From: an uncultured Acidiferrobacterales bacterium
GTDB lineage: Bacteria; Pseudomonadota; Gammaproteobacteria; Acidiferrobacterales; UBA6901
Reading direction: 5' to 3'
NCBI GenBank assembly: GCA_964368085.1
Contig: CAYJBG010000004.1
Coordinates: forward strand, 1 to 48,349
DNA: 48,349 bases
Notes under the pieces: model-generated
The model's input: only the letters and a program-made list of their open reading frames with translations
What the model was told of the DNA's origin: nothing
Database searches by the model: none
Shown here: positions 5,596 through 21,570 of the stretch, one piece after another
How the letters are laid out: the number at the start of each line of letters is the position of its first letter
Position numbering within the stretch: position 1 is the first letter of the stretch
Program-made: the position numbers and the translations under genes

Positions 5596-5713
5596 TGAAG
5601 TTCCTCTTGGGTGTAATCCGGCGCCAAGGAATCAAGCGGCCGGCGGAAAGCGCGGTATTCTAGCCTTAATCCGGCGGGAAAGGAATGGTCTGTCCTGGCT
5701 TTCGCGGCGTCTT

Positions 5714-5759: not shown

Positions 5760-5780
5760 AATGCCCGCGGCCAAGCGGCT

Positions 5781-5810
5781 GTAGCAGGTTGTTGTTCAAC
5801 ATCCTGCTAC
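5781..5810. repeat. GTAG...CTAC-bounded hairpin (REP-like)
   Basis: GTAGCAGGTTGTTG-TT-CAACATCCTGCTAC. Confidence 0.5.
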
Positions 5811-6147
5811 ATGCCGTGACTTGAATATGGATCGGCGGGGATGGCGATACGACTATTGTGTAGCCGTCGAAACCAGGGCGGGGCTCACTGATCGCAGGCT
5901 TCTCGCCACCACCCCACTTTCCCTGACTCGGCGAGGGAAATTCGCTTCGGGGAAAATCCTCCTCCAATTTTCCTGATGAACTGCACTACTTCCCATTGAT
6001 GCGTTCGTCGTTTCATTCTTCGCTCACCATCGACCCTTCGGCGCACATTACCGCGCTCACCACCGCATACGGCCAGTCGCGAAAAACCGGCGCGCGCCGC
6101 GCTAACGTTGTGCCGCGGCCCTGTGCGATGTGCTCGATTGATCTCGC

Positions 6148-7920
6148 TCAACTGCCCAAGTCCACCGCTTCGCCTATCGCGTTGAGACCATCGCCCCGGT
6201 TATCGGTGTCGCCGAGGCCGAGTTGACCCGAGTTGTTGAATCCCCAGCACTTGACCGCGCCGTCACGTAGTTGGCCGCAGGTGTGGGTTCCGTTCATGGA
6301 TACAGATACATCGAGTGCCGGGGCGTTGCCGAAGAAATCCTGTCCCAAGTCCACCGGTAGCAGGTTGTCGCCCATCTCGGTTTCGCCCGTCGCGTTGAGA
6401 CCATCGCCGCGATTGATCATGTCGCCGAGACCGAGTTGACCGAAATTGTTACCACCCCAGCACTTGAGCAGAGCGGGGCCAGCGACAAGCGGCTCCGCGA
6501 GGCGGGCGCATGTTTGTCTTCCTCCGGCCGCGAGCTGCAACACCGTGAGGCTTCCGAAAAAGCCTGCCGATCCCAAGTCCACCGGTAGCAGGTTGTCGCC
6601 CATCTCGGCTTCGCCCATCGCGTTGAGACCATCGCCGCGATTGATCATGTCGCCGAGACCGAGTTGACCAGCACTATTCAATCCCCAGCACTTGACTCGG
6701 CCGTTGTCGAGGCGGGCGCAGGTATGAGCGCTACCGGCTACAATCTCCACCGCCGTCCGGCTGGAACCTAAATCCACCGGCGGCAGAGTGTCGCCCATCT
6801 CGTCGGGACCATCGCCCCGATTGATCATGTCGCCGAGACCAAGCTGACCAGATTCGTTGAGTCCCCAGCACTTGACCGCGCCGTTGTCGAGGCGGGCGCA
6901 GTTGTGCAGGAGACCCGCGACAAGTTCGACTGCCGTGCGGCCGTTGCCCATATCCACCGGCGGCAGGTTGTCCCCCATCTCGTTGTCGTTGGCGCTATCG
7001 CCTCGCAGGGCGCCGGCGATGCCGAGGCCGAGTTGGCCGAAATTGTTCCATCCCCAGCACTTGACCACACCGTTGTCGAGCCGGGCGCAGGTGTGAACAT
7101 TGCCGGCCACAAGCTGTAACGCCGTGCGGCCGTTGCCTAAGTCCACCGGCGGCAGGTTGTTGCCCATCTCGCTTTGGCCCGTGGCGTTGAGACCATCACC
7201 CCGGGCATCGGTGTCGCCGAGGCCGAGTTGGGCGAAGTTGTTCCATCCCCAGCACTTGACCGCACCGTTGTCGAGCCGGGCACAGGTGTGGAAACTGCCC
7301 GCGACAAGCTGTAACGCCGTGCGGCCGTTGCCTAAATCCACCGGCGGCAGGTTGTTGCCCATCTCGGTTTCGCCCATCGCGTTGAGACCATCGCCCCGAT
7401 TGATCATGTCGCCGAGGCCGAGTTGACCTGAATTGTTGCGTCCCCAGCACTTGACCCGACCGTCATCGAGCCGGGCGCAGGTGTGGACCTCGCCCGCGGC
7501 GATTTTCTTGCCGGTGTTGAAGCGCCAGACGTAATCGGCGGCCAGCGAGTTACCGGCCGTGTCCTGGATCGCGGTGGTGAGGCGCGCGGTGTAGTCGGTA
7601 TTAAAAGCGAGCGCCGCCGAGGGCGTAAAATGCACGGCGTTGTCGACCAGCGCGACGGCACCGTTTACCGGACCGCCCGGTCCAGTAAGCGTGAAGCTCC
7701 CGTCGTTGACGGTGGTCGCATTCAGCGCCTGCGAGAAGACCGCCACGATCGATTGCGTAAGAGCGGCGCCGTTTGCGGTATTGACCGGATTGGTGGCGGT
7801 CACGCTGGGGCCGGGGCCGCCCCCACCCCCGCTACCACCACCGCCACCCCCTCCGCCGCAGCCCCCTACACCCAGCATGGCTACCAGCAAACTCGAATAC
7901 AAAAATAAACGATGTTTCAT
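6148..7920 (-). CDS. Surface lipoprotein: Ig-like (Big_5-type) domain plus 7 RCC1-like repeats
   Basis: Signal peptide ending VGGC followed by poly-Gly; PSVTATNP...Y-x-W-x-F-x-T Ig-like domain; seven HTCA-x5-VKCWG-x-N-x2-GQLGLG-type repeats; start taken at MKHRLF. Confidence 0.85.
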   Translation of the reverse strand: MKHRLFLYSSLLVAMLGVGGCGGGGGGGGSGGGGGPGPSVTATNPVNTANGAALTQSIVAVFSQALNATTVNDGSFTLTGPGGPVNGAVALVDNAVHFTPSAALAFNTDYTARLTTAIQDTAGNSLAADYVWRFNTGKKIAAGEVHTCARLDDGRVKCWGRNNSGQLGLGDMINRGDGLNAMGETEMGNNLPPVDLGNGRTALQLVAGSFHTCARLDNGAVKCWGWNNFAQLGLGDTDARGDGLNATGQSEMGNNLPPVDLGNGRTALQLVAGNVHTCARLDNGVVKCWGWNNFGQLGLGIAGALRGDSANDNEMGDNLPPVDMGNGRTAVELVAGLLHNCARLDNGAVKCWGLNESGQLGLGDMINRGDGPDEMGDTLPPVDLGSSRTAVEIVAGSAHTCARLDNGRVKCWGLNSAGQLGLGDMINRGDGLNAMGEAEMGDNLLPVDLGSAGFFGSLTVLQLAAGGRQTCARLAEPLVAGPALLKCWGGNNFGQLGLGDMINRGDGLNATGETEMGDNLLPVDLGQDFFGNAPALDVSVSMNGTHTCGQLRDGAVKCWGFNNSGQLGLGDTDNRGDGLNAIGEAVDLGS

Positions 7921-8089
7921 GATCAAACCCTCATATCGATATTTAAAATAAAAATCCTCGCGCTTATTTGCCCTGTTCGGCTTCCCAGCCGGTTTCCGGA
8001 ATTTACCTAGTGGTCGCAAGCGACCGCCTGTTGATGTTTTTCAGCCCGTTCATTACCTCGGCAGACAGGCTTAAGCCCACCGAAGGTTT

Positions 8090-8782
8090 TTAGTGCCGCT
8101 CGATCTTGCGGGTCATGGTGACGGACCCAGGGTTCGTCCCCGCCGTCCCCGTGTCCGTGGTGCTCGCATCCATGCGGTAGGCCGAAACCTGAGTGGGGTT
8201 CAAATTCCCCACGTAGGCATACTTCAGTGTGTCGGCCGCCGCGCTCGCACCCTTGGTTAGGGTCGATGGAAACGCGCGCGCGCGATTACGCACGGTGCCG
8301 AGGCTCTTTAAAGCCCCGGTTGCGGCGTCGATACGGTAGACCGAGACGGTATTGGGATTTTTATCCTCTACGTACACGAATTTTCCGGAGCGCTCGACGC
8401 TGACGGACCGGGGATGCGGGGCAAACACCGGCACACCGACCGGAGTCAAGGCTCCGGTCCCGGGGTCGATGCGGTAGACCGAGATCTCGTTGGCGGCCTC
8501 ATTCGCGACATAGGCGAATTTGCCCGTGGGGTCGACGCTGACGGTGAGAGGGCCGCCCGCCTCGGTCTCGCTTTTGTCGTGCAACCGACTGGCGGCGGAG
8601 TCCACGGCGTACAGGGACAAGGTTCCCTCGTTGACGTAGGCGACATAGGCGACGCGATGGACATCGGCCGGTGTGCTCACCACACCGGCCGATGATCCGC
8701 CGCTCTGTCCGTCACAGGCGCTGAGCGCCAGCAACGTTAACCCTCCGATAAATGACTTGCCTGGCAGTCTCTTCAAGTTCAT
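8090..8782 (-). CDS. Lactonase-type beta-propeller lipoprotein, shortened paralogue of 13481-15133
   Basis: Lipobox LSAC; VDPTGKFAYVAN...ISVYRID...TGALT repeats; only about 4 repeat units. Confidence 0.75.
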   Translation of the reverse strand: MNLKRLPGKSFIGGLTLLALSACDGQSGGSSAGVVSTPADVHRVAYVAYVNEGTLSLYAVDSAASRLHDKSETEAGGPLTVSVDPTGKFAYVANEAANEISVYRIDPGTGALTPVGVPVFAPHPRSVSVERSGKFVYVEDKNPNTVSVYRIDAATGALKSLGTVRNRARAFPSTLTKGASAAADTLKYAYVGNLNPTQVSAYRMDASTTDTGTAGTNPGSVTMTRKIERH

Positions 8783-8841
8783 GGCTGAGCCTCATTCAGT
8801 GAGTGTGCAGCCTTACTGTGGCCCATCGTGCGCGCGGCTGC

Positions 8842-8857
8842 TGTGAGCCAGTTCACA
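8842..8857. promoter_or_regulatory. Canonical CRP box 1
   Basis: TGTGA-GCCAGT-TCACA, a perfect TGTGA-N6-TCACA, 60 bp upstream of the start at 8782. Confidence 0.8.
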
Positions 8858-8891
8858 GTTTTGCAAAATCCCCGCGTGCGACGGCGCATTC

Positions 8892-8907
8892 TGTGAACCA
8901 GTTCACG
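8892..8907. promoter_or_regulatory. CRP box 2
   Basis: TGTGA-ACCAGT-TCACG (9/10 match), 50 bp from box 1. Confidence 0.7.
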
Positions 8908-8952
8908 CATCCGGCCCGCCGGGCGCCGTGGGCGTCTTGCCGCCTCGACACC

Positions 8953-9627
8953 TCATGGCGTTAACGGATCCCTGGCGGGCGTCATCGCTTGCGACGGCGA
9001 CACCCCGTGCACCACGATGCTTTTGCCGTCCACCGCGATCAGCCCTTGCTGTTCCAGATCGAGCAGTACTTGCCCGGCCGTCTCGCGCGAACAGCTCACC
9101 AGCCGGCCGAGTTCCTCACGCGTGATGCGCACCAGCATGCCCTCGGGATGGGCGATGGCCTGCGAGTCGGCGGCGAGGTCAAGCAGGGCGCGCGCGATCC
9201 TTCCGGCCACGTCCAGGAACGCGAGGTTGCCGAGTTTTTGGCTGGCGGCACGCAGGCATCGCGCGATCTGCCCAACAATCGGCAGCAGCAGGCCGGGCGC
9301 CGCCTGAATCAAGTTACGAAATTTTTCGTAGCTGATCACCGCCACTTCACAATCGGTGCGTGCGCGCACCGAGGCGCTGCGTTTGATATTGGCGTCGAAC
9401 AAACCCAGTTCGCCGAAAAACTCCCCGGGCCCGAGATACGCGAGGATCAGTTCCGCGCCGTCCGGGTCCTGCACCCATACCGTCACCGACCCCGCGAGGA
9501 TGAAATACAGCACATCGGAATTTTCGCCCTCGCGCATGATCAAACGCTTGGGCGCAAAGCGCTTGCGCGTCGCGTGTTGCAGCAGCGCGGCGATCTCGGG
9601 GGTAACGGCAGGGCCGCTCGCGGTCAT
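8953..9627 (-). CDS. Crp/Vfr-family transcriptional regulator (paralogue 1)
   Basis: FFGELGLF...RSA cNMP pocket, LAFLDVAGRIA hinge, HTH TREELGRLVSCSRETAGQVL. Confidence 0.92.
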   Translation of the reverse strand: MTASGPAVTPEIAALLQHATRKRFAPKRLIMREGENSDVLYFILAGSVTVWVQDPDGAELILAYLGPGEFFGELGLFDANIKRSASVRARTDCEVAVISYEKFRNLIQAAPGLLLPIVGQIARCLRAASQKLGNLAFLDVAGRIARALLDLAADSQAIAHPEGMLVRITREELGRLVSCSRETAGQVLLDLEQQGLIAVDGKSIVVHGVSPSQAMTPARDPLTP

Positions 9628-9747
9628 GGTCTAACGCCCGGGCTATTTCGATAATTTAAAAACGTCGCCATCCACACTGTCTCTCGGTAAAAATGCTCCA
9701 TAATTCCCGCGCCGTATGAAATGCGGGCCGTTACGGAAAGGTTCCCT

Positions 9748-11577
9748 TCAATACAGATACACCGCGCCGGCTTGGACGGCAGTGTTGTCGTTCTGATCGC
9801 CGTTGATGCCGGTGGCGTTGCTGGCTTCGGTAAAAGCCCCCACTGCCAGGGTGTTGCCGTCGTTATTTAAGGCAAGAGACCAGCCGAAGAAATCGTTCGC
9901 TCCCGTGTTCGAGGCCTTCACATAGGCCTGCTGGTTCCAGGTGGAACCGCTGCGGGTGAACACATACACCGCGCCGGCAAAGGCGGAGTTGTTAACCGTT
10001 TGATCGCCGTCAATCCCGGTGGCGTTGCTGGCTTCGCCAATAGCCCCCACCGCCAGGGTGTTGCCGTCATTGCTTAAGGCAAGTGAGGCGCCAAAGTTAT
10101 CATCCGCCCCCGTATTGGAAGCCTTCACATAGGCCTGTTGGCTCCAGGTAGAGCCGCTGCGGGTGAACACATAGGCCGCGCCGGCACTTGAGGCGGCGTT
10201 ATTAGCCTGATCGCCGTCGATCCCGACGGCGTTGCTGGCTTCTTGAGTAGCCCCCACCGCCAAGGTATTGCCGTCACTGCTTAAGGCGACGGAGGTGCCG
10301 AAGTTATCATTCGCGTCCGTGTTGGAAGCCTTCACGTAAGCCTGTTGGCTCCAGGTGGAGCCGCTGCGGACGAAGACATAGACGGCGCCCGCACGGAAGG
10401 CGGCATTATTCGTCTGATCGCCGTCAATGCCGGTGGTGGTGCTGGCCTCGAACATCGCCCCCACCGCCAGGGTGTTGCCGTCATCGCTTAAGGCCAGGGA
10501 GTTGCCGAATAAGTCATTCGCATTCGTGTTGGAAGCCTTCACATAGGCCTGCTGGCTCCAGGTGGAACCACTGCGGGTGAACACATAGACCGCGCCGGCG
10601 CTCACGGCTGTATTAATAGTCTGATCGCCGTCGATCCCCACGGCGTTGCTGGCTTCGCCAATAGCCCCCACCGCTAGAGTGTTACCGTCATTATTTAAGG
10701 CAAGAGACCAGCCGAAGGAATCACCATTCCCCGTGTTCGAGGCCTTCACATAGGCCTGCTGGCTCCAGGTGGAGCCGCTGCGGGTGAACACATAGACCGC
10801 GCCGGCCGCTACGACGGTATCGTTAGTTTGATCACCGTCGATCCCCGTTGCGTTGCTGGCTTCGGCGCGGGCCCCCACTGCCAGGGTGTTGCCGTCGTCG
10901 CTTAAGGCGAGGGCAATGCCGAATTCGTCACCCCCGTCGGTATTCGAGGCCTTCACATAGGCCTGTTGGCTCCAGGTGGAGCCGCTGCGGGTGAACACAT
11001 ACACCGCGCCGGCAGTGCCGAGCGAGTTGTTATTCGTCTGATCGCCGTCAATGCCTACGGCGTCGCTGGCTTCGTTAGGAGCCCCCACCGCCAGAGTGTT
11101 GCCGTCACTGCTTAAGGCGATAGACCCGCCGAAACGGTCAGCCGCTCCTGTGTTCGAGGCCTTGAAGTAGCCGATGGCCTGAAGCACCGCCCCGGCCGTG
11201 TTGACTTCGTTGGAGTCGGCGCTACAGCCGACGCTATTGCAGGCTTGTACCAGGTAACGGGCATTGGCCCAGTCGTGGCGAAGCACGGACACATCGCGGG
11301 TGGCGTTAATGGCCGTTATATTCCCTCCGACTTGGGTAAAGCCCGAGACCCCGTCGGGATTTTCGAAAAGCCGGTAGTAGCTGGCGCCGCTTACCGCGTT
11401 CCAACTGAACTGCAGTTGTTTCACGCCGAAGCCGATCAAGAGCGCCGGCGCCGAGGAAGGGGCGCTCGTGGGGGCGCTCCCCCCGCCTCCGCCTCCCCCA
11501 CCCCCGCAGGCGGTAAGAAAAAGCATCGACAGCAGTACCAGGAACCCTGTTTTGATGTTTACGGTATTTATGTTCAT
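9748..11577 (-). CDS. FG-GAP/integrin-alpha-like beta-propeller surface lipoprotein
   Basis: Lipobox LTAC plus poly-Gly; FN3-like segment; seven KASNT-x3-D-x-FG-x2-ALS-x-DGNTLAVGA...AGAVYVF repeats. Confidence 0.85.
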   Translation of the reverse strand: MNINTVNIKTGFLVLLSMLFLTACGGGGGGGGGSAPTSAPSSAPALLIGFGVKQLQFSWNAVSGASYYRLFENPDGVSGFTQVGGNITAINATRDVSVLRHDWANARYLVQACNSVGCSADSNEVNTAGAVLQAIGYFKASNTGAADRFGGSIALSSDGNTLAVGAPNEASDAVGIDGDQTNNNSLGTAGAVYVFTRSGSTWSQQAYVKASNTDGGDEFGIALALSDDGNTLAVGARAEASNATGIDGDQTNDTVVAAGAVYVFTRSGSTWSQQAYVKASNTGNGDSFGWSLALNNDGNTLAVGAIGEASNAVGIDGDQTINTAVSAGAVYVFTRSGSTWSQQAYVKASNTNANDLFGNSLALSDDGNTLAVGAMFEASTTTGIDGDQTNNAAFRAGAVYVFVRSGSTWSQQAYVKASNTDANDNFGTSVALSSDGNTLAVGATQEASNAVGIDGDQANNAASSAGAAYVFTRSGSTWSQQAYVKASNTGADDNFGASLALSNDGNTLAVGAIGEASNATGIDGDQTVNNSAFAGAVYVFTRSGSTWNQQAYVKASNTGANDFFGWSLALNNDGNTLAVGAFTEASNATGINGDQNDNTAVQAGAVYLY

Positions 11578-11790
11578 AAAAATTCCTCTCGTTTTCGTTT
11601 GTCTTTGCCGGCATTTGCGGCCTGCGGTCCCTGCTCGCGAGCTACAGCCGGTTCTGCGCCATCGCCACGCGGTTGTATATCAAGGGTGGTATGGAGCGAG
11701 GCCCCGCTGACGGCGAGACCTCGCTCCTGATCGTCACTCGTACCGATGAAGCTATTCAACAACCTCCCCTATCTGTAAGCAGTGCCCCGA

Positions 11791-12129
11791 TTACTGCACG
11801 ACCCGCGGCTGAACGGGAGCGACTGGTGAACTCTCGCCGGCAAGCGGCGGTCTCTGGACGGTCGTGTCTCCCCTGCAATTCACGAAGTCAGTCTTGCCTT
11901 TGTCCTTGCAAGTCTTGCCTGACATCGCAACGCAGTTGGCCGCATTCGGAGGCTGTGTCGACGGGGTTACGGCGATGGGCGTATTACCGCAGGTACACTC
12001 ACAGTACTCCTGCATCGTGGGCAATTTGCGAGCGGCCATCGCCGAGCTGGAGCCCCAGACGACGAAGCCCAAACCGATCAGAAGACCGATATTTTTGAGA
12101 AGCGTTGATGAAATCGAAGCTTGACGCAT
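11791..12129 (-). CDS. Small secreted Cys-rich protein
   Basis: Strong RBS (AAAGGAG), signal-peptide-like N-terminus ending AMA-A, six Cys (CxCxC...C...C...C), co-oriented with its neighbours. Confidence 0.65.
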   Translation of the reverse strand: MRQASISSTLLKNIGLLIGLGFVVWGSSSAMAARKLPTMQEYCECTCGNTPIAVTPSTQPPNAANCVAMSGKTCKDKGKTDFVNCRGDTTVQRPPLAGESSPVAPVQPRVVQ

Positions 12130-12266
12130 TGCATTCTCCTTTCTGTTAATGAATGTGGCGCTATTGTTGCTAAATCGAGACTGTCTCTCCTCATCCGCAG
12201 CCTGAACTTTGTCCGATGCGACCAGCGTGTCCGGTGCAAAACGGCGCCGGCTGCTGCTGATCCAAT

Positions 12267-13079
12267 TTAAAAACTGTAGTTAGTGGAACCTGCCATGGTG
12301 CCGCCGGCAAAAGGCGTAATGGTTCCGCCGACCGTGTTGTCCAGGAACAGGGTTGTGCCGCCGAAATCAATCGCGTTCAGGATCCCAATTTTCATGTTGA
12401 CAATCCGATTTCCAACGACGGTGTTCTTGCCGGAGGCCAGAACGGCGATGCCTCTTGATCCGGTCGAACCCACGATTGCGTTGCTGACGACATTTCGCTC
12501 CACCACTACGCCGGCGCCGCCTATTCTGATGCCGACAACTTCGTTGGGCGTTACACCGACGCCGGTTTCCACCACCTCGTTGTCGTGCACGTGCACACCG
12601 GTGCCCGCGACAAAAATCGCCCATTTCGCGCCGGCACCCGCAACGCCGCAGTTGTTGAGGAATAAGTTGTCGCGCACAACGCTGCCGTCTCCGTGCACGG
12701 AGATGCCCGCGTTGCCGTTGTCGCTTACTCGCAACTGCTCGAACAAGTGGCCGTGCGATGCCTTGCCGTCGACCCGGATGCCTGTATGAAATCCGCGTAT
12801 CGTGCCGTTACGCACGGTGAGGTTCTTGCGATCAACGGCGTAGATGCCGGTCCCCGTACCGAGGCCTTCGAGCGCATGTCCGTTCAGGTCGATCACGACG
12901 CCGTCGGCATTGACTTGGATCTGGCTGCTGATGGAACTGTTGAGGCAGTAAATCCCCGGCGCGCCGATGGTGTACCACGCACCCGTGATCGGCGTGCAAT
13001 TTGTCGTTTCCGCGTGTGCCACCGCGCTCAGGACCATCGAGAGAACGGCCAAACCGATAAATCGAGCTGTTGATTTCAT
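12267..13079 (-). CDS. Secreted right-handed parallel beta-helix protein
   Basis: RBS GGAGG, signal ending AHA, PGIYCL...VVIDLNGH...VRNGTIRGF and N/G-rich beta-helix repeats. Confidence 0.8.
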   Translation of the reverse strand: MKSTARFIGLAVLSMVLSAVAHAETTNCTPITGAWYTIGAPGIYCLNSSISSQIQVNADGVVIDLNGHALEGLGTGTGIYAVDRKNLTVRNGTIRGFHTGIRVDGKASHGHLFEQLRVSDNGNAGISVHGDGSVVRDNLFLNNCGVAGAGAKWAIFVAGTGVHVHDNEVVETGVGVTPNEVVGIRIGGAGVVVERNVVSNAIVGSTGSRGIAVLASGKNTVVGNRIVNMKIGILNAIDFGGTTLFLDNTVGGTITPFAGGTMAGSTNYSF

Positions 13080-13116
13080 GCTGGTCCTCCAATGAAAGCG
13101 AAATGTGTTTTCGACA

Positions 13117-13192
13117 GAAAATTTATAAGCCGTTGCAAGGCTTATTTCCCGGAACCGGTTCCGGTTTTGAGGGAATTTTCCGTACCCGGGCT
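13117..13192 (-). promoter_or_regulatory. Duplicated promoter copy 1: CCGGA-N6-TCCGG palindrome (13149-13164) plus -10-like TATAAA (13127-13122)
   Basis: ~75-bp near-identical direct repeat of 15311-15386; palindrome centre lies 29.5 bp from the -12 base, i.e. at -41.5. Confidence 0.7.
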
Positions 13193-13205
13193 GTTGTTCC
13201 GTGCG

Positions 13206-13358
13206 GCAGGTTGGGCCGCGCTGGCGAAACCCAACGCTTCAAGCCCATGTCCACCACGCCGGTCTCTCGCACGATCCACCATCGACATTCATCCTCCACG
13301 TCTCATTAACAGCATTGCCGTTGAGTTGTTGGGCTTCATTTCATTCAGCCCAACCTAC
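13206..13358. repeat. REPIN-like inverted pair of the GTAGGTTGGG family
   Basis: GCAGGTTGGG...CCCAAC (13206-13235) and GTTGGGCTTC...GCCCAACCTAC (13328-13358); related to 41245-41328. Confidence 0.6.
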
Positions 13359-13422
13359 GGGCTTACTATTCCAGTGCGGCGATCGATTCCGGCGAAACCA
13401 TTCATGATCGTCTCCTCTGGAA

Positions 13423-13448
13423 GAAAGCCCCGCTGACGCGGGGCTTTC
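13423..13448 (-). terminator. Probable intrinsic terminator hairpin
   Basis: GAAAGCCCCGC-TGAC-GCGGGGCTTTC just downstream of the stop at 13481; U-tract is weak. Confidence 0.55.
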
Positions 13449-13480
13449 CGTTCATGCCGTTACAGAAAGCACAATCCGGT

Positions 13481-15133
13481 TTACTGGATCGTGCCGGTAG
13501 TGGTGACGTAGAAGGGATCGGCCCCCGTAACAAAGGCCAAGCCAAGGCTGGCCAAGGCGCCGCTAACGCTGTCGATGCGGTAGGCCGAGACGCTGGTGGA
13601 GTTGAAATTCGCCACGTAGGCGAACTTGCCGGAGGGGTCGACGCTGACGGAGACGGGACCGTTCCCCGCCGCCACGGCCGCGCCGACGCTGCTGAGCGCC
13701 CCGGTGGTGGCGTTGATGGTGTAGACCGAGACGTTGCTCGAGCCGCCATTCGCCACGTAGGCGAACTTGCCGGAGGGGTCGACGCTGACGGAGCGGGGAT
13801 TGGTCCCCGCCGCAAACGGGCTGCCCGCCACGGCGGTCAAGGCCCCGGTGGTGGCGTTGATGGTGTAGGCCGAGACGCTGGCGGAGCCGTTATTCGCCAC
13901 ATAGGCGAACTTCGGCGTATAGACGACCGCCGCCGTGCCCCGGGTCATGGCCATCGCGATATTGCCGTTGCGGCCCGCGACCGTGGGCAGCGGCGTCAAG
14001 GCCCCGGTGGTGGCGTCGATGGCAAAAGTCGAAACGTTGTCGGAATTCACGTTGGCCACGTAGACGAACTTGCCCGAGGCATCGACGCTGACGGCGGCGG
14101 GGTTGGTCCCCGCCGTAAAGTTCGCGCCGTTGCATCCCGCGCCACCGCCGCAATCGATCTGCGTGAACGCCCCCACAGTCCCCACGTTGGCGGCGTCTAT
14201 GGTGTAGGCCGAGACGTCGCTGGAGACGTTATTCGCCACATAGACGAACTTGCCCGAAGGGTCGATGGCGACGGAGATGGGGCCGTCCCCGGCCCCCCCG
14301 ATGGCGGAGCCAGGCGAGAAGGCGCCGGTGGCGGCATTGATGTGCTGGGCCATTACGAAATCGTCGCCGTTACGCGCGATGAGGATCACCCTACCAGTCG
14401 GATCGAAGGTAATGGAGCGAGGCGCGGCGCCAGCCCCCATCGCAAACGGACTGCCCGCCGCGGGAGTCAGGGCGCCGGTGGCGGCGTCGATGGCATAGAC
14501 CGAGATGCTGTTGCCTCCCACTCCGTCAAAGCCGTTCGCGACGTAGGCAAACTTGCCCGCCGGGTCGACGGTGACGGCGCGGGGACCGCTCCCCGCCGGG
14601 AAGTTCTGAATACCGGCCAGAGCGCCGTCGGCATCAATCCGGGTCAGGGCCCCGGTGGTGGCGATGATGGCGTAGGCTGAGACGCTGTTACCGCCTGCCC
14701 CGTTAAAGCTATTCGCCACGTAGACAAACTTGCCGGTGGGGTCGACGGTGATGGAGACAGGATCCGTGCCGGCCGCCACGGCCGGGCCGACGCTCGTCAA
14801 AGCGCCGGTGCTGGCGTTGATATTGTAGGTCGAGACGTTGTTGGAGCCGTTATTCGCCACGTAGGCGAACTTGCCCGATGGGTCGACGGCGACGGAGCCG
14901 GGATTCGTTCCGGCTGCGATATAACCGTTGTGCCGCAACTGGCCGGTGGCGGCGTTCACCGTATAGATCGAGACAGTGTTGTCGTTGAAATTGGCCGTAT
15001 ACGCGAAGCGCGGCACGTTGTTGGGTGGGGGCGATGCGGCGCCACCTCCACCACCCCCGCCCCCGCCGCAAGCGGCAAGCGCGGCCAGAACGAACAGGGC
15101 GACAACACCGGTTAACGTGCGTTTGCTGGTCAT
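13481..15133 (-). CDS. Lactonase-family multi-blade beta-propeller surface lipoprotein
   Basis: RBS AGGAG, lipobox LAAC plus poly-Gly/Pro; about ten P-x-SV-x-VDPSGKFAYVAN...VS-x-Y-x-I-x3-TGALT repeats; start taken at MTSKR. Confidence 0.85.
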   Translation of the reverse strand: MTSKRTLTGVVALFVLAALAACGGGGGGGGGAASPPPNNVPRFAYTANFNDNTVSIYTVNAATGQLRHNGYIAAGTNPGSVAVDPSGKFAYVANNGSNNVSTYNINASTGALTSVGPAVAAGTDPVSITVDPTGKFVYVANSFNGAGGNSVSAYAIIATTGALTRIDADGALAGIQNFPAGSGPRAVTVDPAGKFAYVANGFDGVGGNSISVYAIDAATGALTPAAGSPFAMGAGAAPRSITFDPTGRVILIARNGDDFVMAQHINAATGAFSPGSAIGGAGDGPISVAIDPSGKFVYVANNVSSDVSAYTIDAANVGTVGAFTQIDCGGGAGCNGANFTAGTNPAAVSVDASGKFVYVANVNSDNVSTFAIDATTGALTPLPTVAGRNGNIAMAMTRGTAAVVYTPKFAYVANNGSASVSAYTINATTGALTAVAGSPFAAGTNPRSVSVDPSGKFAYVANGGSSNVSVYTINATTGALSSVGAAVAAGNGPVSVSVDPSGKFAYVANFNSTSVSAYRIDSVSGALASLGLAFVTGADPFYVTTTGTIQ

Positions 15134-15310
15134 GGTTTCTCTCCTGTTATCGGTCACTGTGCAATAGACATTCATGAAAAATTTCTCTCGTTTGTTTAAC
15201 CGTTCACGGTTTCGTGCCGGGCGCTCGTATCATTCAGCCCAAGCTACGGGCTATCTCTGTCCTGTTTGCCTATTCCATGTCGCAGCAACGAAGACGATGC
15301 CGCACCCATT

Positions 15311-15386
15311 GGAAATTTATATACGGGTGCAAGGCTTATTTCCCGGAACCGGTTCCGGTTTTGAGAGAATTTTCCGTGTCCGGACT
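15311..15386 (-). promoter_or_regulatory. Duplicated promoter copy 2: CCGGA-N6-TCCGG (15343-15358) plus TATAAA (15321-15316), overlapping the 3' end of crp paralogue 2
   Basis: Same sequence and spacing as 13117-13192. Confidence 0.7.
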
Positions 15387-16040
15387 CTCGTTCGGCCCCG
15401 GCGGTTGCGGCGGAACGCCCATCACCACGATGCTTTTGCCATGCACCTGGATCAGCCCCTGTTCTTCGAGGTTGCGCAACACCCGGCCGACCATCTTGGG
15501 GGAGCAGTTGACCAGCCGCCCCAGTTCCTCGCGGGTCATGCGCACCAACGTGCCGTCGGGATGCGAAACCGATTGGGAATCACGCGCCAGATCGAGCAAG
15601 GCGCGGGCGATGCGCCCGGTGACATCGAGGAACGCCAGATGACCGAGCTTTTCGCTGGTGGCGCGCAAGCGTTCGACGATCTGCATGGTGAGCTGCAACA
15701 GCAACTCGGGTTGCTCGCGGATGAACTGCTTGAGCCGGCCATAACCGATCGCGGCGATTTCGCAGTCGGTACGAACGCGCACGTAGGCACTGCGTTTGGC
15801 GTTAATGCCGAAGAACCCCAGCTCACCGAAGAATTCCCCGGGCCCGAGGTACGACAGAATCAGCTCATGGCCGTCCTGGTCTTCCATCAGCACCACCACC
15901 GACCCCTTCAAGATGAAAAACAACTCAGTGGGCGTCTCGCCCTCGTTCACAATCCTGCTCTTGGCTGTGTAATGCCTGCGCGTGGCCGCGGCCAGCAGGG
16001 TTTCGATCTCGGCGGTATAGAGTTTGCGCGCTAATGTCAT
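15336..16040 (-). CDS. Crp/Vfr-family transcriptional regulator (paralogue 2, altered recognition helix)
   Basis: RBS GGAGG; FFGELGFF...RSA, RLRATSEK...LAFLDVTGRIA, HTH TREELGRLVNCSPKMVGRVL. Confidence 0.92.
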   Translation of the reverse strand: MTLARKLYTAEIETLLAAATRRHYTAKSRIVNEGETPTELFFILKGSVVVLMEDQDGHELILSYLGPGEFFGELGFFGINAKRSAYVRVRTDCEIAAIGYGRLKQFIREQPELLLQLTMQIVERLRATSEKLGHLAFLDVTGRIARALLDLARDSQSVSHPDGTLVRMTREELGRLVNCSPKMVGRVLRNLEEQGLIQVHGKSIVVMGVPPQPPGPNESPDTENSLKTGTGSGK

Positions 16041-16084
16041 TGCTTTGCCCTCCTTCAGACCTCACGAGTAAATTGGCTTCACAT

Positions 16085-16294
16085 TCACTTCTCTGGGTCG
16101 TTGCGGCGTCTGCCGGTCACGGATTCCGGCAACACAGAATCTGAGATTGCGTGCGGCGGATCGTTACCGGCCAGCACGGCCCATAGCTCTTCGACGCTGT
16201 GGAAGGACGACTGCTGGTTGCTGGCCGTTTGCTCAATGAGCCCCACGATCCGGGTTCCCTCGCGGCGGTAGATGCGCAGCACGTAACTTTCCAT
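16085..16294 (-). CDS. Small hypothetical protein (SYVLRIYR...G-x2-E...F-x-S-x-EELW type)
   Basis: ATG start, compact beta-beta-beta-alpha-like pattern, 45 bp upstream of crp2 and co-oriented with it. Confidence 0.65.
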   Translation of the reverse strand: MESYVLRIYRREGTRIVGLIEQTASNQQSSFHSVEELWAVLAGNDPPHAISDSVLPESVTGRRRNDPEK

Positions 16295-16300
16295 ACAGCA

Positions 16301-16336
16301 AAGTTACCGCTGGCAATTCACGGATTGTTCACGGAT
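16301..16336 (-). promoter_or_regulatory. SARP/OmpR-type direct repeat plus -10 element
   Basis: Minus strand ATCCGTGAA-CA-ATCCGTGAA-TT-GCCAGCGG-TAACTT-N6-ATG; 11-bp periodicity. Confidence 0.6.
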
Positions 16337-16418
16337 CGCGGGGGCGGGGAGAAAAATTCAGGGAATGGGCGGGAAAAACCCAGGGATGGGGTTGTTTTAA
16401 TGGTTCTGTCCCATGTCG

Positions 16419-16508
16419 GTCGGGCTGAAGGCCGACCTGCAACAGCCGATATCGTTCCTTTTCCATCCACTGGAACCGATGGGTTTCGCTCCGCTCTACC
16501 CATCCTGC
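16419..16508. repeat. Two degenerate REPs
   Basis: GTCGGGCTGAAGGCCGAC-CTGC (16419-16440) and GATGGGTTTCGCTCCGCTCTACCCATC-CTGC (16478-16508). Confidence 0.5.
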
Positions 16509-16532
16509 GCGAGCTAAAATGACAAGTTGGGC

Positions 16533-16560
16533 TTGCGACTTATACCTGTTAAGGTATAAC
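16533..16560 (+). promoter_or_regulatory. TA promoter with operator palindrome
   Basis: TTGCGA...TATAAC overlapped by TTATACCT-GTTA-AGGTATAA (16540-16559); GTG start 6 nt after the -10. Confidence 0.65.
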
Positions 16561-16566
16561 CAAGGC

Positions 16567-16947
16567 GTGACGAATCACCAAGAGAAGCCCCTCGCCTGGG
16601 TGGGAAGCAGCAAAAGGGACTTGATGGCGCTGCCGGTGAGCGTTCGCAAGTTCTTCGGTCATGCCTTGGATTTTGTGCAGCGCGGCGAACAACACGATGC
16701 AGCGAAGGTTCTTAAAGGCTTCGGCAGCGCGGGCGTCTTGGAGATCGTCTAGGATGACCCCGGTGGGACTTACCGGGCTGTTTATACGGTCAAGTTCAAA
16801 GAAGCGGTTTTCGTGTTGCATGTATTCCAGAAAAAGAGCAAGCGCGGCAGCGCGACACCCAAGCCAGACATGAACATCATCCGCGAACGCCTGAAGGTCG
16901 CGGAGCAAGTTGCCCAGGAGATGCGTGATGAAAAAGCGAAAAATTAA
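16567..16947 (+). pseudogene. RelE/HigB (Gp49-like) toxin with an in-frame amber stop
   Basis: KPLAWVGSSKRDL...LKGFGSAGVLEIV*DD-x2-GTYRAVYTVKF-x2-AVFVLHVFQKKSK; TAG at 16750-16752 and the same frame continues to TAA at 16947. Confidence 0.85.
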
Positions 16948-17263
16948 AGGTATCGAAATCGAGATGAGCTCCGGCAATGTCTTTGCCGACCTGCGCTTAC
17001 CGGACGCCGATAAACTGAAAATAAAATCCGGCCTCGTGATTGAAATCACCAAGGCCGTGCGCCGACTGGGTTTGTCGCAAGAGGAAGCGGGGCGCCGTAT
17101 GGGCCTGCCTCAACCCAAAGTCTCCGGCCTGTTCCGTGGCGAGTTTACGAACGTCTCTGAGCGCAAGTTGATGGAATGTTTGAACCGGCTGGGATACGAC
17201 GTTGAGATCAAGGTTAAACCAACCGCCAGGCGCATGGGGCATTTGAGGCTGGCCGTCGCGTGA
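16928..17263 (+). CDS. HigA-like XRE-family antitoxin
   Basis: SSGNVFADL-x-LPDA, LSQEEA...GLPQPKVS, LGYDVEI; overlaps the toxin stop. Confidence 0.88.
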   Translation: MKKRKIKGIEIEMSSGNVFADLRLPDADKLKIKSGLVIEITKAVRRLGLSQEEAGRRMGLPQPKVSGLFRGEFTNVSERKLMECLNRLGYDVEIKVKPTARRMGHLRLAVA

Positions 17264-17421
17264 TTTTAATGGCCGTCACCGTCTCGAATGTCGAAGGGCG
17301 CCATCCTTGCCACACTCTCCACCTTCGTGTGATTCTATCCCGATGTATTGACAGTAAACGCAGGGTGCGCCTGCGCACCGATTCAGTCGGCCGGGCCCGT
17401 GGTGCGTGGAACATATTTTAA

Positions 17422-17542
17422 GGAAGCTCTGAACAAGTCGTTTGCCGTCATTGCGAGCGAAGCGAAGCAATCTCCTAATCAATGGGCTGGAGATTGCTTC
17501 GTCGCCTTCGGCTCCTCGCAATGACACTTAATCAGAGGTTCC
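17422..17542. mobile_element. MITE-like element, copy 2
   Basis: GGAAGCTCTGA...GTCATTGCGAGCGAAGCGAAGCAATCT...AGATTGCTTCGTCGCCTTCGGCTCCTCGCAATGAC...TCAGAGGTTCC; flanks TTAA and CTAA. Confidence 0.7.
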
Positions 17543-17574
17543 CTAACGAACTACAAATTTATTCGCTGAGATTT

Positions 17575-17619
17575 GTAGGTCAGGCTTCGCCCGACATGTC
17601 GGCCTGAAGGCCGACCTAC
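17575..17619. repeat. REP doublet (GTAG family)
   Basis: GTAG-GTCAGGCTTCGCCCGAC-AT-GTCGGCCTGAAGGCCGAC-CTAC. Confidence 0.75.
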
Positions 17620-17660
17620 AGCACCCGATGTCGCGCGGCGATAAGTTCCGACGGGGCCGC

Positions 17661-20600
17661 TCAGCGCGTGGCAATCAACGCATTTCGCAATGCGTCGGTC
17701 TGGGGCGAAGGTGCGATATTGAGTGAGTCTTGCAGGCGCTTGCGGCAACGCTCATAGGCCGCAAGTCCCTCGGTGCGCTGGCCGAGCGCTTGGCAGCAAT
17801 GCAAAATGCGCTGGTAAAGGACTTCCGTCAGATCGTCCTGATCCAGTCCACGGCGATACCAGCGGAGCGCCGCCTCGAAATCGCGCTGTGCTTCCAGTTC
17901 CCGGCCGTGCGCCAGGATGGCGTCGAGATACTTGCGGTGCAGGCGCTCGCGGAAAACCACAGCCCAGGACTCACCGGATTCGCCGTTGAGAAACGGCCCG
18001 GTGTAAAGCTGCGTGGCACGCTCGATCGAAGGCGGCGCCGCACCGTCCGGCGACGGCACGCCATCGGCCAGTAACGACTCGAACGCCCAGCTGTCCACCC
18101 AGCACATACGCGGGTCGAGGCGAAGCCGGCCATCCGCGGTCAGCACACTGTCCTCGCCGGTCAGCTTGCGCAACCGATGCAGCGCCATGGCGTAGCTCTT
18201 GTAGGCTTGGGTCCCGGTCATTTCCGGACCGAGCGCTTCGACCACCTGCTCGACCGGCAGGCCGCGTTCACCGCTGGCCACGAGAAGTTTGAGCAGGTCG
18301 AGCGGCTTGCGCTGGGCCTTGCCGGAGGATGGCAGGGGCCGGTCGCGGACGGTTACGGCAAAACGGCCGAGAGTGTGAATCCGCACTTCCCACGGCCAGC
18401 GTTCCAAGTGCCGCACGGACGCGACGGCTTCGAGGCGGCGCGTACGGATGAGATGTTGTACGTACTCCACTTCAATGCCGTTTTCGATAGCGATGGAAAA
18501 AAGACGCCGCATGATTTCCGGCGTCCACAACGGACGATTGACGTAGCCGTGCAGTTTGGCCATGTGCAACGTCTTGCGCAGCAAATTAATCGCGAGGCGG
18601 GTTTTGCCGCGATCCAGCGCGAACAACACGAGTGTGAACAACGACCCGAATTCGACATTCTTGCTGCGCAGGCGCCGCCCGAGGTGCCGTGCCTGCGCCA
18701 GACAGGCCAGCGCCTCGCGCCGTTCGCCCTGGTCGAACAAGGCTTGTGCCAGCCCCAACCGGTAAAGTGCCTGGCCAAACGGGACACCGGCAGCATCGCT
18801 GAGCGCGGCCGCCTGGCGCGCGTTGGCGACCGCATGCAGGGTGTCTTTGCGGAAGAAGGCGTCTAAAAAAACAAGATAGTAATAGTGTGCGCGATCCAGT
18901 TGACGTGCGCCTTGAATCGATTCCGCGCTGCCTTTGAGCAGACGCCCGGCCATGGCGAAATCGCCGGCAGTCAGGCTGCCGATCACGCCCTGCGACAGCA
19001 ACAGGCCATTCAGCATCTGCACGCCGCTGCGGTTGGCCACCTCCAGCCCTCTGTTCACCGCGTGCAGGCATTCATCATGTGCCGCCATGAACCAGTGATA
19101 ACCGGCCTCCATGGCGCACCAGGCGATGTAAGCGAGCGGTGAAGCGTCGGCAAGGCTTTCGGGTGGACGCACGGCTTCGAGGATCTGGCGTGCCTTGCCA
19201 AGATCGCCGATCCAGGCGGTGTAATAAAGCAGCAGTTGATTGCCGAGCACCATGCGCGCGCGTATCCGGATGGTGAAGAACGACTGTCTGTACCTGCTCC
19301 GCCCACATCGGAAGTTGCGGGTTTTGCGGTTGGCGATACATCAACGCCATGAACATGCCACAGGCAACCTGTGCGGCGATCTCGGGTGACGGAAACCCGG
19401 GTGAATCGGCACGCTGCAACTCGATCTCGGCGATCCATCGATCCACCGGATGAAAGTCGCCCCACTCGTAAACGAAGCTGTCGATGATTCGGCACCAGGC
19501 CAGCAACATACCGGCCCGGTCGTTGGCCTGGCTCTTGAACCGTTCGTAGGCGGATTCGAAATAGCCACGCGCCTGAACCGGATTGAAGGCGAGGCGACAG
19601 GTACCAAGCCAGTACAACAGCCAGCCATCGCTGTGCAATACGGTCTCTGGCAATGCGCGCAGCCAGGATTCCAGAGTTTGGAATCGCGCTTGCGCCGTAA
19701 GCGCCGGGGCATGTTTTAGGACATGCGCTTCCAATGCTGGCCAGTCCGATGCGGCGCGCCACAGCTCCGCCGCCGGCTCACTGTCGTCCGCCGCTTCGAG
19801 CAGCGCCGCCGCCTGGGTGCGCAACGCATTGAGTTGCGCAGGCGCGAAGGTATCAAGTGCGCGCTGCAGCAGAAACTCGTGGAATAAGGGATGGAACCGA
19901 TAAACCTCGCCCTGCCCTTGTTTGGTAACGAAATAATTTCGCCGGTACAGGTCGGCAAGAATTTTCCCGACGCCGGGCTCGCCGGTGATCTGCTGCGCGA
20001 TTGCCGTATTGGCTTCCGGCAGCAGGGCGGTTTGGCACAAAACCGATTGGGTCGTGGCGTCGAGCTTGTGAAAGATTTCGGTGGCGAAGTAATCGAACAA
20101 CACCTGATGCCCGGAGGCTTCAGCGAGCGCGGGTGCTTCGAGTTCGGGCCGCTCCAACAGCAACACCAGCCCCGCCGTCCAGCCACCGGTGCGTTCGTGC
20201 AGACGTTTCAGTTCGTGCGGGTCGAGCTTGCTCCGGTTGCGCAGCGTGACCACGGCGCGCGCCTCGTCGAGAGTGAGTTTTAATTCCGCGCCTTCCAGCA
20301 AGGCCAGTGCTTCGTTGGCGCGCAGCCGCGCGAACGCCGGCGGCGGTTCGGCGCGGCTGATGATGATAAGAGACATGCCCCCGGGCAACACGGCCGCCGC
20401 CTCGGCGACCACGGCATGGAAAGCGGATTCGGCGGGAACCTCCTGATAATTATCCAGCACCAGCACCGCCGGGGCCTTTAACCGTGCATAGAGCGCCTCG
20501 AAATAGCGGCGTGCGAACAAGACGAGGCCGGGGCGCTGTTCAGGCGTGAAGACCGGCAACGGCGTTCGATACCGCGAGGCGGCGTGGCGCGCGGCAATAC

Positions 20601-21036
20601 CTATATAGTGGAAGAACGTGGCAGGGTCGTCATCGCCCGCGTCCACTTGATACCAGATGCCATGAAGACGGCGGGCATCGAGATAACTGCTGACCATGGT
20701 GGTTTTGCCGGCGCCGGGCGCTCCGGTGACCCAGACCACCGGTTTTGCGCGCGAACGATCCAGATATTTGTAGAGGCGCGTGCGCGCCAGGGCGTGCGAG
20801 ACCTGGGGACGGGAAAGCTTGGCCGGAACGGGACCCGTAGCTGTTACGGGCGGGGTCAGGGGTAAACGTGGTGTGGATTCGCCTTTCCGGCGTGCCGGAC
20901 TCCCGCCTTTCGCGACGGCGGATTGGCGGCTGAGTCGGGCTTTTACCTTTTTGACAGGCACGGCCTTGCGGGAACGGCGTTTATTCTTCCTGTAGCCTGT
21001 TCTGCGCACGGTGACTCTTCCTCCCTTCACCAGCAT
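17661..21036 (-). pseudogene. MalT/AfsR-like STAND ATPase-TPR-SARP(HTH+BTAD) regulator, split by one frameshift near 19254-19262
   Basis: ORF 19075-21036: P-x-KLSRP, Walker A GAPGAGKTT, Walker B LVLDNYQ, RTGGWTAGL, YRFHPLF. ORF 17661-19253: TPR-like region, then IHTLGRF, LHRLRK, WVD, LYTGPFL and a BTAD tail. The frames join at a GC dinucleotide run. Confidence 0.85.
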
Positions 21037-21117
21037 AGCAGGACGCTTGGGAGATTCGGGAACGAGTCACCTTTGTCATTTTGATGACGATCGGCAGGTT
21101 TCATAAGGAAATCGTGA

Positions 21118-21570
21118 TCAGGGTCGTGGTTCCCAGCCATGCCGCTCTCCTTGGGCCGATTGGCACCAGGTGTAGAGCGCGTCGTACAGGACCATGCCAT
21201 GGCGCAGCATTTCGTGATCGTCGCTGATGTTGCGCGACAATCCCAGCGAAATGGCCAGCAGGCCGGGCGATTGCGGTGCGAGGTCAAGCCGATCCGTGTC
21301 GGCGCCACGAACGATCACGGCCAACTGTTGTAATGCCGGTTCGGTGAGATTGTATTTTTTCAAAAAGGCATCGAAGCTGCACAGCTCGCCCACGTGGCTC
21401 ATCTCAACGCCCGGAATGTCGTACGGAATGGCGCCGGTTTCCATGGCGACTTTCAGCACCTGATTGGTCGGCACGTAGAGGAACTCAGGGTCTTTATCGA
21501 TGAACCGGGCAATCAGCCACGGGCAGGCGATGCGGTCTATTTTCGGGCGTTCGCGGGTGATCCATTTCAT
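21118..21570 (-). CDS. Chromate resistance protein, ChrB C-terminal domain only (ChrF-like)
   Basis: MKWITRERPKIDRIACPWLIARFID, CSFDAFL, IVRGADT. Confidence 0.88.
   Translation of the reverse strand: MKWITRERPKIDRIACPWLIARFIDKDPEFLYVPTNQVLKVAMETGAIPYDIPGVEMSHVGELCSFDAFLKKYNLTEPALQQLAVIVRGADTDRLDLAPQSPGLLAISLGLSRNISDDHEMLRHGMVLYDALYTWCQSAQGERHGWEPRP

Follow-up and report, generated by a model that had tools for sequence, protein, structure and literature searches.

We examined a 48,349-nucleotide (nt) stretch of DNA (the window; contig CAYJBG010000004.1 of GenBank assembly GCA_964368085.1) from an uncultured Acidiferrobacterales bacterium and found that positions 5690-21127, between the rpsP-rimM-trmD operon and chrB, probably form a mobile, strain-specific island centered on a single copy of a regulatory cassette that is widespread. 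As reconstructed here, the cassette would consist of a STAND regulator running from a MalT-like NTPase through a TPR sensor to a C-terminal SARP part; a promoter with two 11-bp direct repeats in place of the -35 element and, at a distance of 8-9 nt, a -10-like hexamer; a gene under this box promoter for a cytoplasmic mini-protein with a core of ~45 amino acids (aa); and downstream genes for exported proteins, usually in the same transcription unit and often encoding lipoproteins with a cysteine-polyglycine (Cys-polyGly) tether. A preliminary description of the same DNA had proposed a complete local cascade leading from the regulator through a 69-aa protein and two Crp-type proteins to a battery of surface proteins. 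Of more interest than this local cascade is the conserved combination of regulator, box, mini-protein, and polyGly lipoprotein. It is widespread and has no family-library model, and searches of the literature outside subscription journals on STAND, BTAD, or SARP proteins of Gram-negative bacteria and on polyglycine linkers found no account of it. The preliminary description, too, had not recognized it as a described system. An apparent literature match to BTAD proved to be the article number of a cited journal paper. Related genomes, loci, contigs of the source genome, and sequencing runs are labeled G, L, C, and X, respectively.

Regulator, promoter box, and mini-protein gene

For the predicted link from the regulator to the small gene, the comparative support is strong and comes from synteny, from the conservation of a SARP-type box, and from a promoter geometry that is fixed. 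For synteny, three of the small-protein copies of the source genome, out of four, were aligned, and a scan of one genome per species with this alignment yielded 46 loci in Gammaproteobacteria, Betaproteobacteria, Nitrospirota, Desulfobacterota, and other metagenome-assembled genomes (MAGs), one of them labeled Actinomycetota. At 30 of the 46 loci (30 of the 42 evaluable ones), the small gene was preceded on its own strand by a regulator that ended no more than 1 kb away, and at 8 others the regulator lay elsewhere, either after the small gene, in divergent orientation, or with a cargo gene in between. The typical regulator at these loci has ~1070 aa and comprises a MalT-like NTPase, TPRs, and a C-terminal SARP part. 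The source genome carries four modules, on contigs C4, C3, C52, and C167, each with a ~1090-aa regulator, its own small gene, and its own repeat variant. Across the order, the distribution of the cassette is patchy (29 of 103 genomes). The preliminary description had proposed a neighborhood survey; at the loci examined here, the 69-aa protein recurred with the STAND-BTAD regulator and often with polyGly lipoproteins, but only rarely with a Crp gene.

The box of the window lies on the minus strand at 16301-16336. The repeats ATCCGTGAACA and ATCCGTGAATT (16336-16315) are followed by 8 nt, the -10-like hexamer TAACTT (16306-16301), 6 nt, and the ATG of the small gene, the whole element extending through 16292. 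Upstream of small genes in general, the conserved element is made of two 11-bp direct repeats in which the first 8 letters are kept, commonly as ATC-C/T-GT-R-R. The strict pattern ATCBGT-N5-ATCBGTDR had 2 sites in the 2.37-Mb genome, each directly 5' of a small-gene copy, and a reversed-pattern control had none; the 11-bp direct repeat pointed out previously is thus real and nonrandom. The repeats of the remaining two modules are variants that keep the period and spacing. Among the loci, an 8-mer recurring at an 11-nt offset (7-8 of 8 letters) was found in 31 of 47 upstream regions, compared with 61 of 960 random 200-nt control windows that were drawn from the loci themselves, and a few of the 31 were without the motif. 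The distance from the box to the next TAnnnT was 9 nt in 20 and 8 nt in 2 of the 24 strict-box loci. Further boxes were located directly 5' of RCC1-type and other genes (L007, L034, L019, and L024) and, in genome G025, directly upstream of crp. Within the window, we found a single SARP box and a single pair of CRP boxes.

In three of the four modules of the source genome, the -10-like hexamer stands only 6-10 nt before the ATG (window 16295-16336; L002 1460-1500; L062 ~590-650), a distance at which the small-gene mRNA would be nearly leaderless. In other phyla, the small genes have leaders of 30-66 nt with a Shine-Dalgarno sequence.

The regulator is encoded on the minus strand in two halves. 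The N-terminal half (19075-21036; AAA_16 and AAA_22) is a MalT-like P-loop NTPase (NOD) that matched positions 3-411 of the 903-position MalT model NF003420 with 190.7 bits, far below the equivalog cut-off of 537. The C-terminal half (17661-19253) is an intact 530-aa open reading frame (ORF) with its own ATG and holds the TPR and SARP parts. Its BTAD domain was placed at residues 386-526 by Pfam, its profile positions 287-522 matched AfsR residues 29-261 (E 6.8e-21), and a further match was to EmbR (2.5e-8). The TPR part matched the sensors of AfsR, MalT (structure 1hz4), and PH0952. The 240 C-terminal residues are thus homologous to the entire SARP domain of AfsR, and to EmbR, and comprise an OmpR-type winged helix-turn-helix (HTH) followed by BTAD, which is the arrangement of a SARP. 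The N-terminal P-loop NTPase and the TPR-like sensor are shared with MalT and other LAL regulators, whereas the C-terminus is of SARP type instead of the LuxR-type HTH of MalT; a Pfam scan of the regulator found no LuxR HTH.

The closest known counterpart is the AfsR-AfsS pair of Streptomyces. PMC10936776 describes SARP sites as direct repeats with an 11-bp period and a fixed distance to the -10, the afs box as 22 bp that overlap the -35 region, with the protein touching the first 8 bp of each repeat, and the main direct target of AfsR as the neighboring gene for a ~60-aa protein, afsS. The direct repeats of our element likewise recur every 11 bp and keep a constant spacing to the -10, and the element is a putative SARP site. 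Both systems combine a SARP part, a NOD NTPase, and a TPR sensor, both have a 22-bp target made of two 11-bp direct repeats overlapping -35, and in both a neighboring small gene is the target, here a predicted one. The regulator thus appears to be a permuted arrangement of the AfsR parts, and the neighboring small gene would be its conserved direct target, like afsS. The order is NTPase-TPR-SARP here and SARP-NOD-TPR in AfsR, and the NTPase here is MalT-like by NCBIfam. The hosts belong to the Proteobacteria, Nitrospirota, and Desulfobacterota and not to the actinobacteria, the neighbors encode exported lipoproteins rather than antibiotic pathways, and the box stands ~3 nt farther from the -10 than the afs box. 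The mini-protein is likened to AfsS by gene position and size. In a 2024 review (PMC10972967), SARPs are called exclusive to actinobacteria, and large SARPs are given an N-terminal SARP, a central NB-ARC/NOD, and a C-terminal TPR part. The regulator departs from this class in its domain order as well as in lacking an actinobacterial host and a secondary-metabolite cluster around it.

The 69-aa mini-protein gene (16085-16294, minus strand) had no Pfam or NCBIfam match, yet its product is a real protein, as judged from amino acids conserved over varying codons, the breadth of the family, and a confident model. A profile of the small-protein family matched 2754 representative clusters at E<=1e-3 among 1.84 billion, mostly of 55-90 aa. 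The layout is a conserved ~45-aa core with a variable tail, and in 41 sequences M1, Y4, I8, Y9, R10, G18, F31, and L37 were invariant while the codons varied. AlphaFold predicts three strands and a helix with a predicted local distance difference test score of ~90 over residues 1-40 and a disordered, often basic tail. Some family representatives (P0009 and P0051) contain two mini-protein cores within one protein of 115-137 aa.

Searches with the mini-protein returned no name. Foldseek found no match in the PDB at E<=0.001, the best Z from VIA-align was 2.8 (48,161 chains), with which no fold could be assigned, and the best feature score in the protein atlas, 0.86, led to unnamed clusters only. 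A homologue search with the single 69-aa protein produced 8 matches, all unnamed or annotated as "hypothetical protein", and ten family representatives that were looked up had no informative name. Pfam DUF7889 (gathering cut-off 27 bits) was considered and rejected: the window protein did not match, 5 of the 41 members matched weakly (best E 5.8e-4), no copy at the small genes of the source genome matched, and the term was absent from the literature searched. In a complex prediction for the TPR-SARP half with the small protein, run without controls, the scores were 0.25 and 0.22 (mark, 0.32), which weighs neither way.

Exported cargo and the Crp tier

The products of the genes downstream of the small gene were surveyed with Pfam over the first four genes at 37 loci (122 proteins). 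The first gene is typically large, and its product either falls outside the Pfam families or contains Ig-like, propeller, or leucine-rich repeat (LRR) domains; the domains seen include Big_5, Big_2, PD40, DUF5050, SBBP with LRR, and Lcl_C. Among the 31 first downstream genes on the same strand and within 400 nt, 22 begin like a signal peptide, and a Cys followed by at least 3 Gly is encoded by at least 8, the latter in gammaproteobacterial, deltaproteobacterial, Nitrospirota, and Bacteroidota-labeled MAGs. In the source genome, 7 of the 10 ORFs that fit the Cys-polyGly lipoprotein pattern adjoin three of the four modules (one of the 10 looks spurious). Because the tether recurs both in these modules and in other phyla, it is, by genome comparison, a hallmark of the cassette and not a local curiosity. 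The earlier observation of three lipoproteins with such a tether held: the RCC1, FG-GAP, and lactonase lipoproteins of the island each carry a Cys with 8-9 Gly after it.

Crp1 and Crp2 align over their full length to the CAP and Vfr structures (E ~1e-63 to 1e-65), are 59% identical to each other, and each score 264.2 bits against the CRP equivalog NF008732, just under its cut-off of 266. In E. coli CAP, the Arg-Glu...Arg of the recognition helix contacts bases and reads TGTGA. The recognition helix of Crp1 reads 'csretagq' where CAP has 'csretvgr', so that R and E are kept and Gln replaces the third Arg; that of Crp2 reads 'cspkmvgr' where Vfr has 'csremvgr', with P and K in place of R and E and the R kept. 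The residues that we take to be the Glu and Arg-Ser cyclic AMP contacts of CAP are conserved in the alignments of both proteins. Compared with CRP and Vfr, then, the island proteins share the full-length alignment and the TGTGA-N6-TCACA sites present here, and differ in their rarity in the order, their scores just below the cut-off, and their altered recognition helices.

The two island genes are the only CRP-type genes in the assembly, and such genes occur in 4 of 31 related genomes (the source genome included) and in none of 18 others of the family. Since Crp genes are confined to the island in this genome and rare in the relatives, the Crps came with the island. The preliminary description had counted them as part of the system. 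A Crp-type gene was found at only 1 of the 46 loci (L049) and a pair of cyclic-nucleotide (cNMP)-domain genes at 1 (L018), and on this genomic evidence Crp is a lineage-specific add-on rather than a conserved part of the cassette. The description of the island as self-contained was likewise not borne out, the supply of cyclic nucleotide being external: the genome has three class III cyclase domains, all on other contigs, and a class I adenylate cyclase was not found in the 79%-complete assembly. A cyclase lies beside the cassette at 1 of the 46 loci, L030 (8362-14750, Thermodesulfovibrionales). There, the small gene is followed by genes for a type II secretion system (T2SS)/MshE-type ATPase, a PP2C phosphatase, a Ser/Thr kinase, and the class III cyclase, so that the cargo differs in kind from that of the other loci.

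Two CRP-type sites, TGTGAGCCAGTTCACA and TGTGAACCAGTTCACG, lie 50 bp apart (8842-8907) in the 170-nt region between crp1 and the short-propeller gene. They match TGTGA-N6-TCACA with no mismatch at 8842-8857 and with one at 8892-8907. These were the only sites with at most one mismatch in the 48 kb, where 0.79 were expected, and sites with at most two mismatches numbered 6, compared with 11.9 expected. The weight of the pair comes from its placement in a single 170-nt intergenic region, the 50-bp distance, and the equivalent pair after the crp1 orthologue of G025. That genome, from another family of the order, encodes a Crp 82% identical to Crp1, followed by the same CRP site pair. Its gene order is TPR-BTAD regulator, tandem box, crp, and CRP sites; behind these come another box, a small gene, and the gene of a short Cys-polyGly lipoprotein. 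The TGTGA boxes noted in the preliminary description are accordingly real, although weak by count alone and confined to one promoter of the island. Just after the CRP boxes of G025 (L061, ~1530-1670) stands a 46-codon ORF with a prepilin-like N-terminus (GFTLTELV), at the place that the short-propeller gene occupies in the window.

The island, its genes, and the state of the regulator

ORF and Pfam scans placed rpsP-rimM-trmD on one side of the island and chrB, an insertion-sequence (IS) gene of the IS200 type, and chrA on the other. In a DNA search of 30 related genomes, the same site held 1.8 kb in G002, 2.4 kb in G001, and 5.4 kb in G003, all of the same genus, compared with ~15.4 kb in the window; the 5.4 kb of G003 contain an IS66 transposase gene, an RNaseH-like gene, and an MFS gene. 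One metagenome contig of run X6 joins position 5689 directly to 21128. The three same-genus genomes without the island at this site and the flank-joining contig establish its island status, and the island part of the preliminary description was upheld on these grounds. No tRNA gene was found in positions 1-26000, so that no tRNA-linked integration site is apparent there, and Rfam at gathering thresholds gave no matches in 4000-23000. The IS200-like (Y1 transposase) gene at 21648-22109, between chrB and chrA, adjoins the island, and two short repeats similar to each other lie near it (21592-21658 and 22123-22191).

The gene map, drawn from the ORF listing with Pfam and NCBIfam scans, confirmed the order given in the preliminary description, with every gene on the minus strand except for a toxin-antitoxin insert. 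Downstream of the mini-protein gene come crp2 (15336-16040), which begins 44 nt after it with no predicted terminator in between; the lactonase-type beta-propeller lipoprotein gene (13481-15175), with a Cys-polyGly tether and flanked by 100-nt direct repeats; a secreted right-handed beta-helix protein (12267-13079; Beta_helix and NosD, with a signal-peptide-like N-terminus); a Cys-rich secreted protein of 112 aa that belonged to no known family in the Pfam and NCBIfam scans (11791-12129); the FG-GAP_2 propeller lipoprotein (9748-11577), with the tether and 207-nt internal repeats; crp1 (8953-9627); a short lactonase-type propeller lipoprotein (8090-8782); and the tethered Big_5 and RCC1 propeller lipoprotein (6148-8019), after which a terminator-like hairpin follows at 6102-6090. 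Upstream of the lactonase, beta-helix, Cys-rich, and FG-GAP genes, neither a CRP-type nor a SARP-type site was found, and a scan of 5600-21300 for consensus sigma-70 promoters gave no sites, below the shuffle counts.

The first tier of the proposed cascade is damaged and probably inactive in this genome, with a frameshift between the NTPase and TPR parts and with higBA and repetitive extragenic palindromic (REP)-like repeats between the regulator and the box. In tblastn searches with intact homologues, the frame changed at ~19258-19265, a run of CG dinucleotides that corresponds to residue 605/606 of the L005 regulator. These homologues begin aligning at window position 20823, and the true start of the regulator is probably downstream of 21036. 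The frameshift sequence was present, identical and gapless, in contigs of X3, X4, and X5 (three runs from two studies), one of which has 13 substitutions nearby. The frameshift is therefore not peculiar to this assembly, although a check on contigs would let rare in-frame variants escape notice. Expression of the island may be off altogether or may depend on the free-standing 530-aa TPR-SARP fragment; natural short regulator forms of 294-650 aa elsewhere, with TPR and SARP or the SARP part only, suggest that this fragment could work alone. At two unrelated MAG loci, L009 (4559-7764) and L033 (4159-7681), the regulator is likewise split into two overlapping ORFs, suggesting that frameshifts or assembly errors recur in this long gene. 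At the contig end of C167 (L062, 3950-4273), the C-terminus of a further regulator immediately precedes the C167 regulator, and regulators may thus occur in tandem and the genome may have a fifth module.

The only plus-strand genes of the island, at 16519-17263, are a Gp49/HigB-like ORF followed by an HTH_37 HigA antitoxin gene. The arrangement is that of HigBA, but the toxin gene (16519-16900) has a premature TAG at 16750-16752, where the intact 127-aa homologue of G003 has GAG; the antitoxin gene (16910-17263) is intact. This higBA-type pair, which was also found in other contexts in G003 and G006, is an insertion that separates the regulator from the box and stands outside the cassette. A REP-like palindromic element has three copies, one at the left edge of the island (5713-5779) and one on either side of higBA (16419-16454 and 17585-17639). 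A short inverted-repeat element at 17438-17546 had a summed contig depth of 100-300 in all four runs, with many contigs leaving it into unrelated sequence, and looks like a multi-copy repeat of the miniature inverted-repeat transposable element (MITE) or REP type. Contig depth was also raised in the bin 13310-13843.

The preliminary description had paired three motifs with three regulators, among them a CCGGA box. The palindrome, CCGGAACCGGTTCCGG, is indeed present, at 13149-13164 and 15343-15358. Both copies fall within a 100-nt, 82%-identical duplication (13119-13218 and 15313-15412; repeat family D13, inverted repeat I23) that comprises the last crp2 codons and the sequence following them; one copy has a terminator-like hairpin (13145-13125). 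Because the duplication includes coding sequence, no regulator is assigned to the CCGGA box, which is a recombination or duplication scar, and the palindrome was dropped as a site for a third regulator. The two copies flank the lactonase gene, and an X6 contig joins 13133 to 15328, yielding a form without this gene, which indicates that the cargo is interchangeable.

Proposed wiring, alternatives, and meaning

From the genes, domains, motifs, synteny, and island status described above, we infer a scheme of binding, activation, and co-transcription. A signal at the TPR and NTPase parts would let two SARP domains settle next to each other on the repeats, where they would recruit RNA polymerase in the way AfsR does at afsS. 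The mini-protein and the co-transcribed genes, crp2 here and lipoprotein genes elsewhere, would then be switched on. This lineage would have acquired Crp paralogues, of which Crp1, using cyclic nucleotide from elsewhere in the cell, would most likely act through the TGTGA-N6-TCACA pair on the short-propeller and RCC1 operon. The other four cargo genes may rely on read-through, on the site of Crp2, or on promoters of their own. A comparable two-tier hierarchy is described in PMC5930380, where PimR, a SARP-type NTPase regulator, activates the cluster-situated PimM, which activates structural genes; the second tier here would be of Crp type rather than PAS-LuxR, and architecture and hosts differ. 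As for the mini-protein, a feedback partner acting on its own regulator is a tentative first choice, an AfsS-like downstream effector is slightly less probable than that, and a lipoprotein-related helper appears doubtful. A private copy beside each regulator paralogue and, at L028, a small gene placed before the regulator fit a cognate partner somewhat better than a general effector.

Several observations weigh against this scheme. The related loci, retrieved with patterns taken from the best-conserved parts of the peptide, are a biased sample of the family. The regulator was absent from reach at 4 of the 46 loci (another 4 were too short to judge), a clear repeat was missing from 16 of the 47 upstream regions, and the first downstream gene was of a non-exported kind at 9 of the 31 loci, for example a T2SS ATPase, the regulator itself, or a Crp. 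Signal peptides and lipoboxes were assigned with simple regular expressions and not by a trained predictor. In the window, the regulator is frameshifted in all assemblies examined, so that the cascade may be dead here, and five of the seven cargo genes yielded no control site. Gaps of 120-400 nt and the hairpin at 13145-13125 speak against a single long operon. Crp1 has Gln at the position of the third contact Arg of CAP, and 20 of 100 shuffles gave at least two CRP sites, so that the pair by itself is not statistically exceptional. None of the runs on record as RNA contained the stretch.

These points bear most heavily on the complete cascade of the preliminary description, in which the STAND regulator switches on the small protein and Crp2 and, with Crp1, all seven exported-protein genes. 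That this cascade functions as a whole is unlikely. Its genes share one strand and one island, the box precedes the small gene with crp2 44 nt farther on, the box of G025 would drive crp directly, and the module on C3 has the order regulator, small gene, Crp-like gene, and exported proteins. Yet the regulator is frameshifted, four of the cargo genes have no upstream site of either type, the Crp2 helix departs from CAP and Vfr at two positions that contact bases in E. coli CAP, Crp is rare beside the cassette elsewhere, and the X6 contig without the lactonase gene speaks for interchangeable cargo. What stood of the cascade is the link from regulator to small gene, the island-borne Crps, and the polyGly lipoproteins; the conservation of Crp, sites at most of the cargo genes, and an intact first tier did not. 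A reading with slightly better prospects, although still improbable, is that of a recombination hot spot with unrelated accessory genes, where functional links exist only between the regulator and its small gene and between crp1 and its boxes, everything else being a passive mosaic. It would account for the REP-like repeats, the duplication around the lactonase gene, the higBA pseudogene pair, the adjoining IS200-like gene, the population variants, and the different genes, IS66 transposase included, at the site in G003. It does not account for Cys-polyGly lipoproteins beside three of the four modules of the genome and after the small gene in distant phyla, or for boxes directly upstream of RCC1-type genes at L007 and L034, a recurrence too frequent for chance accretion.

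Two further explanations concern the nature of the cassette itself. The 69-codon ORF is short, first in its transcription unit, and variable in its tail, as a leader or attenuator for the downstream genes that encodes no functional protein might be; the eight invariant residues over varying codons in 41 sequences, the confident fold model, the 2754 mostly stand-alone clusters, and the change of downstream genes from locus to locus make this highly improbable. The least credible of the alternatives is an anti-phage STAND defense (Avs-like) with exported effectors. A STAND NTPase with a TPR sensor, the island location, and the patchy distribution would suit it, but the output is a transcription activator with a conserved box rather than a nuclease-like or protease-like effector, and a PADLOC scan of 10 proteins gave no matches.

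We therefore retain the island built around one cassette copy as the preferred reading of the window. More broadly, and only tentatively, the cassette may represent a large, undescribed class of signal-transduction systems in Gram-negative bacteria and Nitrospirota in which a permuted AfsR-like activator, with a beta-beta-beta-alpha mini-protein as both its conserved direct target and its specific partner, switches polyGly lipoproteins, in insulated copies that each have their own repeat and with a CRP second tier in one lineage. It would be a Gram-negative counterpart of AfsR-AfsS for envelope composition. The SARP domain and its box geometry are encountered here at the C-terminus of MalT-like NTPases in several non-actinobacterial phyla. 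The island is real but partly decayed, and an intact paralogue would be the better object of study. If the wiring is true, it would give a functional frame to many "hypothetical" small proteins and BTAD-domain ATPases of environmental genomes, a predictable promoter code of two 11-bp repeats for locating the targets of such regulators, and a tractable system for the control of a lipoprotein repertoire by STAND sensors.

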